This document shows, piece by piece, positions 16,618 through 24,950 of a stretch of 25,383 nt of DNA (position 1 is its first letter; each line of letters begins with the position of its first letter). This stretch comes from Candidatus Aenigmatarchaeota archaeon. GTDB lineage: Archaea > Aenigmatarchaeota > Aenigmatarchaeia > QMZP01. The stretch lies in the NCBI GenBank assembly GCA_038999435.1, contig JAVZYR010000006.1, positions 1-25,383 on the forward strand, given 5' to 3'. Under the pieces are notes generated by a model, which worked only from the letters and a program-made list of their open reading frames with translations, was not told the DNA's origin and did no database searches. The translations under genes and the position numbers were made by a program.

Positions 16618-17027
16618 TATCATTACTCTCCTTGATCACAATATGCATAATGTTTGTTGTTTCGTTTATATACAGGATAAGCATAAATCCAAGTGAAATG
16701 AGAGATTTGAAAAAACAGATTGAAAAATATCGCATTGAAGCAGATAAAGCAAGAAAAAATAACGAAAAGGAAAAAGCTGAAAAGTTAATGAATGAAATGC
16801 TTAAAGTTAGCCAAAAACAACTTAGATTGAATTTAAAGCCTCTGATGATCTCAGGTATTGTTTTTCTATTAACATTATCTTGGATGTCCCGATATTTTAC
16901 TGGGTTTGAGATATCCTTACCTTTCTCTATTGTGTTTTTGGGAAACAGCATAAGTTGGTTTTTGTGGTATATTCTACTTGCTATAACATCAACACAAATC
17001 TTCAGAAAATTATTGGATGTTGATTAA
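16614..17027 (+). CDS. DUF106 / EMC3-TMCO1 (Oxa1 superfamily) membrane protein
   Basis: TM, coiled-coil, LKPLMIS, then SWFLWYIL....QIFRKLL; conserved position downstream of secY/adk. Confidence 0.88.
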   Translation: MISLLSLITICIMFVVSFIYRISINPSEMRDLKKQIEKYRIEADKARKNNEKEKAEKLMNEMLKVSQKQLRLNLKPLMISGIVFLLTLSWMSRYFTGFEISLPFSIVFLGNSISWFLWYILLAITSTQIFRKLLDVD

Positions 17028-17056
17028 AGGAAAATATAATAATAAATATAAGATAT

Positions 17057-17155
17057 CCCGGGGTAGCTCAATGGCAGAGCATGCGGCTGTAGTCTGCTGA
17101 AAAGAAATGATGACCTGAGACCGCAGGGTTGGGAGTTCAACTCTCCCCCCCGGGA
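17057..17155 (+). tRNA. tRNA-Tyr(GTA) with 27-nt anticodon-loop intron (17093-17119 if at 37/38)
   Basis: Acceptor CCCGGGG/CCCCGGG, A73, C1:G72; D arm GCTC/GAGC; anticodon stem TGCGG/CCGCA with spliced loop CT-GTA-GA; T arm GGGAG-TTCAACT-CTCCC; CCA not encoded. Confidence 0.93.
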
Positions 17156-17156
17156 T

Positions 17157-18473
17157 TTATTCAATGTCTATCTCATTTGAAAAAACAGAATATTTCTTTC
17201 CTTTTATATCAAAATTCAATTTTGCTGGAGGAAGACGCACCGAAGCAGGCATTGGTAGTTTAATGGTATAGTTTACAATCCTAATTTCTCTTGGAGGAAT
17301 ATTACCAAGACGCCATATCAGTTCTGTTCCTTTTTCACCCTTTCTTGTTACAGGATTTAGATGACCTGAATCAGCAAGTTGTGATAGTGGGGAGATGATA
17401 TCTTTTAATATAGCATCCTTAACACCTCTCAAAAATGGTGATTTTATCTCAAGTACAACAACATGGTCATTCGGGCTTTTTTTAACTATCTTCTTTGTTA
17501 TTACAGGCCTGCTTATTCTGAACTTGTAAAACCACACAATAAAAATGAACATTATAACAAAACCTACAACCTCTGATATTGTTGGCCAATAGCTTATTGA
17601 ATATACTATCTTTGCACTCGTGCCTGGTTTTATTTCTTCTATCAAGAAATCACATTGACCACCATCGCATTTCACAGGCTTTGTAATAAAACCTGTAAAC
17701 CATATTGGAGATATGTCTCTTTTGACAGTATAATTATAAATCGGTTGATTTCCTTTGTTCTCTACTTCTATTTCTACTATGTCCTGAAGGAAGCCAGATT
17801 TGATATTTATGTTCTCTACAACATCTTTTATAGGACTTATTCTGAATTCATGGCTTACCTCACAACATTTAGAAGATATTTTCAAAACATAATCGCCATA
17901 TACAAGCCCTTGAAGTGACATCTCATTTTTAAATCTTTCTTCATCTTTAACCCATACATCTATTTGAGATGAAGAGATGATGTTCTTGCCTGAATATATA
18001 CCAAAGATTAGATTAACTTTCCCTGCCTCTTTTACCTTAATTGCCCCATTTACAACCAACACATCGCCTTTTACTTCAAGTGCAATATCATGGATATATA
18101 TCTCAGGTAATACCCTTAGTGAAAATATCCTTTCATAAACAGCACCAGAACTTGTTTTTATGATAAGTCGGTATTGTATATTTTTTTCTTTATCTGTTTT
18201 TGGTAAAAATGTGATGTTAAATATTTCTGACTGATTTGGGCTTAATGAAAGATAAAGAACAGATGGTATTTGCCATTCGAGATGTTCACCTTGAACTGAT
18301 ATCTCAAGTCCTTCTGTCCAATTTTCTGTATTTGTTACAGCAACTTCAAAATCGGCCCTTTCTCCTGAAAAAATGACAATCTGTGGGTTTTCAATTCTTA
18401 CATCGAGTGCATATACAGATGAGGCACAAAACATAATACCAATGAATGCCAAAAATATAATTTGAAATTTCAT
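17157..18473 (-). CDS. Cell-surface / single-pass membrane protein with beta-rich (Ig-like) domains
   Basis: Signal peptide ending ..VYA|LD, beta-rich segments (VTNTEN, EVENKGN, IKPG), TM WPTISEVVGFVIMFIFIVWFY, basic C-terminal domain. Confidence 0.7.
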   Translation of the reverse strand: MKFQIIFLAFIGIMFCASSVYALDVRIENPQIVIFSGERADFEVAVTNTENWTEGLEISVQGEHLEWQIPSVLYLSLSPNQSEIFNITFLPKTDKEKNIQYRLIIKTSSGAVYERIFSLRVLPEIYIHDIALEVKGDVLVVNGAIKVKEAGKVNLIFGIYSGKNIISSSQIDVWVKDEERFKNEMSLQGLVYGDYVLKISSKCCEVSHEFRISPIKDVVENINIKSGFLQDIVEIEVENKGNQPIYNYTVKRDISPIWFTGFITKPVKCDGGQCDFLIEEIKPGTSAKIVYSISYWPTISEVVGFVIMFIFIVWFYKFRISRPVITKKIVKKSPNDHVVVLEIKSPFLRGVKDAILKDIISPLSQLADSGHLNPVTRKGEKGTELIWRLGNIPPREIRIVNYTIKLPMPASVRLPPAKLNFDIKGKKYSVFSNEIDIE

Positions 18474-19071: not shown

Positions 19072-19157
19072 GCTCGGGGTGGGATTTTCAGCTTTTGACA
19101 ATTGAACCCACTTCCGCGGCTCTGCAGGCCGCTGCATAACCGGTCTGCCACCCGAGC
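19071..19157 (-). tRNA. tRNA-Cys(GCA) with 16-nt intron at 59/60 in the T-loop (19085-19100)
   Basis: Minus strand: GCTCGGG...GCGGC-CT-GCA-GA-GCCGC...GTGGG-TTCAAT[TGTCAAAAGCTGAAAA]T-CCCAC-CCCGAGC-T; U73 discriminator fits Cys. Confidence 0.93.
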
Positions 19158-24029: not shown

Positions 24030-24950
24030 CTTTTTGATCTCCTCTTCCAAATCCTTTTTCAACTCGGCTGATCTGTCCTCTTTACTGAAATAATCTATTC
24101 TTGCTGCTAAGCTAAGCTTTGCAGCTAAAAGTCGTGCAACCTTCCCTCTATTTTCTGGTTTTGCATGTTGAACAAATGGATGGAGAAATATTATACCATA
24201 CTTTGGTACTTTTGCCTTCTCTTTTAGATGTCTGAACAATGCCTTCTCTGCACCAAGCAGTTGTATTGTGGATGCAGGCATCTTTGCCAGTTTTTCAAGG
24301 CTACCTGCATGTTCAAGTAGCTTTGCTGCAATGAATGCGCCTGCAATCCCATACAAATTTGGCATCGTCTCTTTGCATATCTTCTCAAGATATTTGAAAA
24401 GCGCCTTTCTTTGTTCAAATATCTGAGCTAACATACCTGCCCATGCCCTTGCCGTTTCCACATCTTGTGGACTAAATTCCATGCCTGCTGAAGTGCTTGC
24501 AAGGTTCTCAAAACCTTTTATTTTATCCCTGCTCCCTCCTTCTGCAACGAGCTGAACAAACCTTTCATTGTCTGTCACAACTTTTGTTAATTCTGGAAAG
24601 TGAAGGCCATACCATTCCCTGAATCTCTCAACAAATGAGTTTAGGTTTTTGTCAATTTGTTCTATCATCCCAACAACAGGCTTTGCGATATTTTCTTTCC
24701 TTCCTTGTCTTAGCTTTTGTTTTACAGACAAAATACCTGCCTCATTCAGCATGATGTTTATCTCTAAATCGCTCTTTGCGAGCCCTGCTTTGATAATAGC
24801 ATTTCTAAGACCTTTTCTAAGAAAAGTATTATCTTCAATTATATCTTTAAATCTCTTTTTTATTTTTTCATCCTTTGAATAGCCCAAAAACCTGCCCTGC
24901 TCATCAAAAACAAAAAAACCGAGAGGGCATTTTGCAAGGTACACTGCCAT
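24021..24950 (-). CDS. nop5: C/D box sRNP subunit Nop5 (Nop56/58), compact
   Basis: RFREWYGLHFPEL, MPNL, AGSLEKLAKMPASTIQLLGAEKALFRHL, PKYGIIF.HP, RGKVARLLAAKLSLAARIDYF. Confidence 0.95.
   Translation of the reverse strand: MAVYLAKCPLGFFVFDEQGRFLGYSKDEKIKKRFKDIIEDNTFLRKGLRNAIIKAGLAKSDLEINIMLNEAGILSVKQKLRQGRKENIAKPVVGMIEQIDKNLNSFVERFREWYGLHFPELTKVVTDNERFVQLVAEGGSRDKIKGFENLASTSAGMEFSPQDVETARAWAGMLAQIFEQRKALFKYLEKICKETMPNLYGIAGAFIAAKLLEHAGSLEKLAKMPASTIQLLGAEKALFRHLKEKAKVPKYGIIFLHPFVQHAKPENRGKVARLLAAKLSLAARIDYFSKEDRSAELKKDLEEEIKKLS

Follow-up and report, generated by a model that had tools for sequence, protein, structure and literature searches.

A 27-nt tRNA-Tyr intron of an aenigmatarchaeon as a putative minimal box C/D-type methylation guide

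The window analysed here, the whole 25,383-nucleotide (nt) stretch of contig JAVZYR010000006.1 from Candidatus Aenigmatarchaeota archaeon (assembly GCA_038999435.1), carries a pre-tRNA-Tyr(GUA) gene (17057..17155, forward strand) interrupted by a 27-nt intron. We propose that this intron serves as a minimal methylation guide of box C/D type with a single kink, which lies within the pre-tRNA-Tyr and targets C39 of its own host, a reading that we favour with some reserve as a rather probable one. Judged from the aligned sequences, CUGA-N6-AUGAUGA has the sequence of a C'/D' kink-loop (K-loop) and is the positional homologue of the kink-turns (K-turns) present in the tRNA-Tyr introns of the same order, and the 27-nt intron would represent the most shrunken type within a conserved family of intron-borne guides.

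The tRNA-Tyr introns of the window and of its order

The source genome, hereafter G000, is 549 kb long, in 30 contigs of which the window is contig C6, and is 86% complete with 38% GC. Matching DNA is present in hot-spring metagenomes (four DNA metagenome runs, one hot-spring study), and the metagenome contigs covering 16850-17350 contain the intron without variant. The tRNA-Tyr gene is matched by Rfam RF00005 over 17057-17155 (+) with 55.2 bits; ARAGORN returns it in intron mode as tRNA-Tyr(gta) with a 27-nt intron, and returns nothing at the locus without this mode. The 5' exon (17057-17092) and the 3' exon (17120-17155) flank the intron at position 37/38 (17093..17119, +), whose K-loop module reads UCUG-CUGA-AAAGAA-AUGAUGA-C-CUGA-G. 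The exact splice register can shift by 2 nt, since the 5' exon and the intron alike end in AG. Every register gives an identical mature loop, CUGUAGA, and an identical circle; an earlier examination of the same DNA, the sequence-only reading, had pointed out that the circle guide does not depend on the register. The same mature loop is that of the intron-less tRNA-Tyr orthologue of genome G002.

A D'-type box, CUGA (17097..17100, +), forming the non-bulged strand of the K-loop, is followed by a 6-nt loop, AAAGAA (17101..17106, +), and by a C'-type box, AUGAUGA (17107..17113, +), which would supply the bulged strand and the sheared GA pairs. This order of D', 6-nt loop and C' is that of a K-loop, and both boxes agree with the C and D consensus. 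The intron sequence, the boxes and the loop are thus confirmed where the sequence-only reading had placed them, and its view of the intron as a box C/D-type K-loop element, akin in kind to the tRNA-Trp intron guide, is supported. The K-loop is a single one, and no second C or D box occurs in the exons, that is, one kink is present where archaeal C/D guides normally have two, about 12 nt apart. A second CUGA (17115-17118) was considered as a D box and rejected, since it follows the C box after 1 nt and has no conserved counterpart in the sister species G001. When the locus and those of eight relatives were scanned with Rfam, only the tRNA model was matched by G000 and no C/D family by any of them, the sole snoRNA-model match among the relatives' loci being to a Caenorhabditis model (22 bits vs a 60-bit threshold).

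Immediately ahead of the D' box, the sequence is complementary, always in one register, to the anticodon stem's 3' strand together with the 3' splice junction. In G000, this antisense or guide strand (17087..17096, +), homologous to CGGUCUK of the relatives, is reduced within the intron to UCUG: N+1 to N+4 are intron G4, U3, C2 and U1 (17096-17093), N+5 is supplied by exon G37 (17092), and N+6 to N+10 are A36-C32. The alignment of UAG/UCUG-CUGA in G000 (the slash marking the splice junction) with CGGUCUG-UUGA of the relatives places U3, C2 and U1 at N+2 to N+4 and G37 at N+5. The predicted target strand (17118..17126, +) is made of the last two intron bases, A26 and G27, followed by A38, C39, C40, G41, C42, A43 and G44, with C39 (17121) opposite N+5. 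N+2 to N+5 are Watson-Crick to A26, G27, A38 and C39; A36, in place of the relatives' G opposite C40, leaves a mismatch at N+6; further out, G41 offers U35 a wobble partner, and C42, A43 and G44 are by chance complementary to G34, U33 and C32. Against the tRNA's own 3' junction the guide therefore reads x||||x:|||, and an independent second search returned the same target. A 4-nt linker, CCUG (17114..17117, +; read by hand), separates the C' box from the target and is the counterpart of the intron strand in the central helix of the bulge-helix-bulge splicing motif. The linker of the relatives is ACAG or GCAG, complementary to C32-U35; CCUG pairs at two of these four positions.

Genome G001, of the same genus, has a homologous 24-nt intron, UCUG-CUGA-UAG-AUGAUGA-UUGGAG, an identical copy of which is also found on a metagenome contig and in a GenBank metagenome-assembled genome (MAG). 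UCUG, CUGA and AUGAUGA are identical in both species (AUGAUGA also in genome G007), while the loop (AAAGAA vs UAG) and the first three tail bases differ. The intron of G031, from another genus, reads UCUU-UUGA-[UUGGU UAAC ACCAA]-AAU-GA-GAGAAGGAG; its module is a textbook K-turn, with a 5-bp hairpin in place of the loop and the same distances to both splice sites as in G000. Other genera have hairpins of 3-8 bp at this place, unrelated in sequence. Apart from unrelated bacterial matches, scans of metagenomes and genomes with a 19-20-nt exon anchor yielded copies of the G001 and G031 types and tRNA-Tyr genes of greater distance, and nothing else.

In order to cover the whole order (Aenigmarchaeota-type DPANN), 91 of its genomes were searched with an exon pattern excluding the intron, which matched in 58 of them, at 60 places; all the matched loci were read except one (G089). 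The 56 distinct locus strings comprise one intron-less class, three strings that the parser did not delimit and 52 usable introns. An intron was counted as positive when N+2 to N+7, upstream of an NNGA box, formed at least five of six pairs with the last two intron bases and A38, C39, C40 and G41, the pair at N+5 being Watson-Crick. Forty of the 52 usable distinct introns show this register, with C39 opposite N+5 and a consensus antisense, CGGUCUK or CGGUUUK, directly 5' of the NNGA box. The eight other registers tested are found in 1-12 introns each, near the shuffled expectation, and shuffled introns average 2.8 at the true register and never exceed 7 (200 shuffles). The positive introns cover four families and lengths of 24-104 nt. 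The conservation of the boxes among relatives, to which the sequence-only reading had looked as a check, is found in the sister species, and the homologous NNGA box in these 40 introns of the order. One of the introns undelimited by the parser, that of G021, was read by eye as AACGGUCUU-UUGA-CGUAAG-GAUGAUA-UACGGAG, with a K-loop resembling that of G000.

Guide base N+3 and the last intron base vary together in the 40 introns: they are C:G in 25, U:A in 14 and C/A in one, and both the C:G and the U:A classes occur inside family f2. As the last intron base is missing from the mature tRNA, this covariation speaks for a pairing of the guide with the precursor before splicing; as far as compared sequences can tell, it shows that guide-target pairing is under selection across the order.

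The positive introns are arranged in either of two layouts. The canonical layout, that of families f2, f5 and f6 (29/40 introns), has the C box upstream of the D box, in the order closing stem of 4-10 bp, one spacer base, C box, guide, D box and the stem's other strand. Its C boxes are GUGAUAU, AUGAUGA, GUGACUU and others, its D boxes AUGA, UUGA, ACGA, UGGA and CUGA, and the C-to-D spacer is of 12 nt in 20 of the 29 introns. The closing stem, aligned in 28 of them (the 98-nt intron being omitted), shows 98.6% pairing, and double compensatory changes affect four of its five pairs. The permuted layout, that of family f1 (11/40 introns, including G000, G001 and G031; ten assigned by script and L092 by eye), begins with the guide and the D' box, continues with a hairpin or short loop and ends in the C' box, a 3-nt bulge with GA. 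It can be derived from the canonical one by circular permutation, the break falling between C box and guide and the closure running across the stem. Its hairpins are unrelated in sequence (GGAC/GUCC, GGGAU/AUCCC, UUGGU/ACCAA, UUCGC/GCGAG and others) and its GA dinucleotides are fixed; elsewhere in this type the C' box takes variants of the form xUGAxxx, always 6-7 nt ahead of the 3' splice site, the distance from its end being 6 nt in 9/11 introns and 7 nt in 2/11 (by hand). The two layouts hint, on the strength of these sequences, at a rearrangement via a circular intermediate or a shifted intron boundary.

We also observed that the layouts track the family boundaries (L071-L083 and L103-L117 vs L016-L018, L031, L032, L036, L085, L088, L092, L098 and L101). 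Furthermore, distant DPANN tRNA-Tyr genes on metagenome contigs and in a Pacearchaeota MAG (L051, L052, L054 and L061) have 78-84-nt introns with a common motif, GAUGA-A(G/A)(C/U)-GUGA, which is possibly a K-loop of AUGA-N3-GUGA type.

Readings of the intron

The cis guide that we favour would act in the unspliced precursor, where L7Ae would bind the K-loop and bring in Nop5-fibrillarin. G37-U1-C2-U3, extended by U35, G34, U33 and C32, would pair with A26-G27/A38-C39 and onward to G44, in a conformer in which this helix would form at the expense of the splicing motif and the anticodon stem. The 2'-O-methyl would then be placed on C39, which faces the fifth base ahead of the D' box, and the RNA could afterwards refold to the bulge-helix-bulge and be spliced. 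As both splice sites sit within the guide helix, the guide conformer would be unspliceable, and methylation would therefore precede splicing. In favour of this reading are the conservation in near relatives and across the order, the covariation of N+3 with the last intron base, the encoded protein machinery and the similar modules in other tRNA introns of G000. The intron-guided Cm34 and Um39 (or Cm39) of archaeal tRNA-Trp are a precedent.

Several points speak against this reading. The antisense of G000 is short, with four Watson-Crick pairs, an A/C mismatch, then one GU and three Watson-Crick pairs that use the anticodon itself, and the guide-target pairing of the relatives reaches only 6-8 bp, below that of typical archaeal guides (10-12 nt). 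The guide:target conformer is at -31.4 kcal/mol vs -38.8 kcal/mol for the cloverleaf-like minimum-energy fold (-32.5 kcal/mol for a cloverleaf with open intron), in a model that leaves aside the non-canonical K-loop pairs; protein binding would therefore be needed for the conformer, as is accepted for pre-tRNA-Trp. There is a single K-turn here, whereas archaeal C/D small RNAs (sRNAs) normally carry two. Within the order, 33 of the 91 genomes have no exon-pattern match and 12 of the 52 introns are devoid of the module, and counts such as 40/52 overstate independence, since the sequences are related. Cm39 in archaeal tRNA-Tyr was not found documented in the literature searched; we infer L7Ae binding, methylation and the order of events from the sequence.

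Could the boxes be C-like and D-like words that arose in an AU-rich intron without any function? The pattern CTGA-N3-8-RTGATGA does occur 10 times in the genome (549 kb, both strands; 3.7 in block shuffles), and nine of these matches lie inside long open reading frames. The tRNA-Tyr intron is the only non-coding match, and the chance level of the pattern is about 1e-4 per intron. Moreover, the boxes are kept in G001 although the flanks change, and homologous K-turns, covarying stems and the fixed antisense register recur in 40/52 introns of the order. A chance origin is thus hardly credible, and is effectively refuted by the sequence conservation. Unlikely too, though deserving far more weight, is that the K-loop is a working L7Ae-binding site from which the guide function has been lost, the UCU complementarity being a relic of an ancestral guide. 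L7Ae would in that case stiffen the apex of a very short AU-rich intron, substituting for the inner helix of the bulge-helix-bulge, or would time splicing. Such a role would fit with the perfect retention of the boxes in G000 and G001 while the antisense is down to four Watson-Crick pairs, with the fixed distance of the C' box to the 3' splice site given above, which makes it adjoin the central helix of the splicing motif, and with the weakness of this canonical helix in G000 (2/4 pairs). It accounts less well for the retention of the N+5:C39 register and of UCU in all three minimal introns (G000, G001 and G031), for the covariation between N+3 and the last intron base, by which the pairing itself is selected across the order, and for the full antisense that other introns of G000 retain beside their K-turns. 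An H/ACA-like role, combining an L7Ae K-loop with pseudouridine 35 of tRNA-Tyr, was also considered and dropped: there is no ACA box and no pocket geometry, and the target would be in cis.

The sequence-only reading had assigned the guide to a circle: excised and ligated, the 27-nt intron would present C box-CCUGAGUCUG-D box and act in trans on C32 of a tRNA-Leu. In the relatives, the target of such a circle would perhaps be a different tRNA. This model we regard as improbable. Of the junction-spanning guide, what holds is that the working guide includes one nucleotide across the splice junction, but three of the ten proposed guide bases differ in G001; nor would the guide form only on circularisation, as the relatives have their CGGUCUK antisense entirely within the linear intron, abutting the D' box on its 5' side. 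Circularisation would bring back the C-guide-D order of canonical guides, the spacer measuring 10 nt in each of the three minimal introns (by hand), a length for which the fixed distances between the K-turn and the two splice sites account just as well, and the tails of these introns fit the splicing helix of their own tRNA poorly. The eight longer permuted introns, however, give circle spacers of 16-72 nt; the family as a whole is therefore not built for a circle-only guide, and no selection on the circle guide length is visible. As for targets, the tRNA-Leu(CAG) that had been proposed was not recovered: CAGACTCAGG has no exact match in the G000 assembly, its 16 one-mismatch sites are at chance level with none in a stable RNA, and no tRNA-Leu(CAG) was found within a tRNA set that is incompletely annotated, many G000 tRNAs carrying T-loop and D-loop introns. 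The search for an rRNA target fared no better, 16S rRNA (C8:1156-2756) having no site with fewer than two mismatches to either candidate guide. 23S rRNA was not found in the assemblies of G000, G001 and G031. The 23S loci of six relatives show only CAUAYUCAGG (sense strand, 4/6), in which N+3 is mismatched and, three times out of four, N+5 forms a wobble; we judge this match to be one chance event at a conserved site.

Two other tRNAs can be paired with the circle guides. That of G000 pairs at N+3 to N+10 (six Watson-Crick, two GU) with positions 30-37 of tRNA-Leu(UAG), on contig C18, with C32 at N+5, and that of G001 pairs at 9/10 positions with tRNA-Trp 28-37, a stretch identical in G001. 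Only 6 of the 64 possible 3-nt tails on the fixed 7-nt core meet the same criterion (25 annotated anticodon arms), so that two of the three minimal-intron species satisfy it vs a null of about 9%, for a criterion that was chosen after the matches were seen. Against these matches, N+1 and N+2 are mismatched to tRNA-Leu(UAG), and 100 genome sites pair with the guide equally well; the G001 guide misfits the same tRNA (xx|:||:x::), so the two species need different targets; and G031 offers no target of this kind in its 26 tRNA candidates, its one script match being on the wrong strand with U32. The guide-target covariation that the sequence-only reading had suggested looking for is observed with the host's own last intron base. 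Positions 32-33 are mostly CU in tRNAs and nearly any triplet is some anticodon; the circle-guide matches are near chance level, a hint and not support. The guide could finally have two lives: the precursor K-loop with G37 would direct Cm39, and the 27-nt circle (C-10 nt-D) would then direct Cm32 elsewhere, in tRNA-Leu(UAG) here and in tRNA-Trp in the sister species, splicing switching the target and the permuted layout having arisen via circles. This combination seems to us quite improbable.

The gene for tRNA-Leu(UAG) (C18:365-470, -) lies directly downstream of that for tRNA-Glu(UUC); it has a T-loop intron and a variable-arm region of about 46 nt, which is unusually long and may hold a further insertion.

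If the cis guide targeting C39 is correct, a box C/D guide ribonucleoprotein (RNP) would work from an intron of 24-27 nt, with a single K-loop and a borrowed exon base in its guide, at a functional size far under that of any described archaeal C/D RNA. Intron-guided 2'-O-methylation of nucleotide 39 (Nm39) would be extended from tRNA-Trp to tRNA-Tyr, and the need of the intron for tRNA modification would be a concrete reason for the persistence of the tRNA-Tyr intron in extremely reduced DPANN genomes. The two permuted layouts in sister families would furthermore provide a natural test case for the movement and rearrangement of C/D RNAs, possibly through circular intermediates.

Box C/D machinery and other tRNA introns of the genome

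The proteins of archaeal C/D RNPs, L7Ae, Nop5 and fibrillarin, are all encoded in G000. A homologue of Nop5, the box C/D RNP scaffold, lies in the window itself (24030..24668, -; PF01798, 218.8 bits, E 1.6e-65), fibrillarin on contig C8 (PF01269, 266 bits) and L7Ae on contig C4 (PF01248, 107 bits). No stand-alone box C/D sRNA of G000 emerged from three pattern searches: regular expressions for canonical two-kink C/D sRNAs gave 0 matches, and a stand-alone stem-C-guide-D pattern gave 13 matches vs 11.4 in shuffles, all within reading frames of at least 100 codons. The fibrillarin machinery of G000 may therefore have guides inside introns as one of its main uses. The only non-coding stretch with consensus C and D boxes 42 nt apart (ATGATGA...CTGA), at C16:3018-3070 (-), is a weak candidate, in which neither internal boxes nor a terminal stem are obvious.

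The only clear K-turn guide modules noticed in G000 are those inside tRNA introns. The introns of tRNA-Trp (C9:12349-12450, -; UGGAGCU-AUGA-UUC-GUGAUUGA), tRNA-Ser(UGA) (C3:4089-4164, +; CAAGGU-CUGA-CCU-UGAUGA, the intron being apparently at 30/31) and tRNA-Glu(UUC) (C18:509-602, -; CGAAAGGU-UUGA-[GC CUUU GC]-AAU-GA) each contain one K-turn or K-loop and an antisense, with nt 34 at N+5. The tRNA-Trp introns of G001 and G011 have the same nt-34 guide arrangement, with different box and loop sequences.

Other tRNA genes of G000 are interrupted at other places. The tRNA-Cys(GCA) gene of the window (19090-19157, -; GGTTCAAT[tgtcaaaagctgaaa]ATCCCA), with a T-loop intron of about 15 nt, is missed by ARAGORN and matched by the Rfam tRNA model with an E-value of 0.85 (15 bits). 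Many tRNA genes on contigs C2, C3, C11, C14, C16, C18 and C29 (e.g. C16:2140-2410, -) are broken in the T-loop and some in the D-loop, by long introns assembled from recurring hairpin modules such as GAGCCCTTTCTTTCAAGAAGAAAGCGCTCGC. Because of these T-loop and D-loop introns, standard detectors find only 10-15 tRNAs in G000.

Comparison with known systems

The intron guide of pre-tRNA-Trp was reportedly described in original studies by Clouet d'Orval in 2001, Bortolin in 2003 and Singh in 2004. Like it, the tRNA-Tyr element is located inside a 37/38 tRNA intron and is predicted to use L7Ae, Nop5 and fibrillarin; its putative target lies, as there, in the anticodon arm of the host tRNA, position 39 included; and its guide conformer would compete with the splicing motif and have to act before splicing. 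The two differ in several respects. The pre-tRNA-Trp guide has C, D', C' and D boxes and two guides, whereas the tRNA-Tyr element has one K-loop and one antisense in another host, its box order is permuted (guide-D'-loop-C'), its guide is partly exon sequence, including N+5, and neither it nor its relatives match any Rfam C/D family. The guide introns of pre-tRNA-Trp are also longer, about 60-105 nt vs 27 nt in G000. In Euryarchaeota such as Haloferax volcanii and Pyrococcus (sR50), it is the box C/D guide in the pre-tRNA-Trp intron that directs the modifications Cm34 and Um39 (or Cm39) (PMC7994747, PMC6313347).

The other case at hand, as presented in the study of Nanoarchaeum equitans (Randau, 2012; PMC3491384), is the elongator tRNA-Met of this archaeon, whose 66-nt intron contains a putative C/D sRNA with a degenerate C box and no target assigned. 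The same text states that only tRNA-Trp introns were earlier known to contain a functional C/D sRNA, and notes a permuted C/D sRNA, with box D upstream of box C, as well as circular forms (PMC3491384). Both this element and ours are intron-borne, C/D-like RNAs of DPANN archaea; the tRNA is different, and the intron of N. equitans is much longer than that of G000. No report of a tRNA-Tyr intron guide was found in the limited collection of literature searched.

Minimal single-domain C/D snoRNAs have one C box, one D box and an antisense of about 14 nt (Deryusheva and Gall, 2019, as cited in a passage of PMC7994747). This is the layout matched by the canonical stem-C-12 nt-D form of families f2, f5 and f6. 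The permuted element of G000 resembles the internal C'/D' K-loop of archaeal C/D sRNAs, with CUGA, a loop of 3-9 nt, UGAUGA, an antisense directly 5' of D' and the N+5 rule. Unlike in these sRNAs, the K-loop of G000 stands alone, without a terminal C/D pair, and the 5' end of its guide is unanchored by a C box unless circular. The tRNA-Tyr element thus has the boxes, the K-loop and the encoded proteins of a C/D guide, with one kink instead of two and a short antisense. We file it, as a predicted guide, among the variants of the C/D guides, outside the family of the tRNA-Trp introns.

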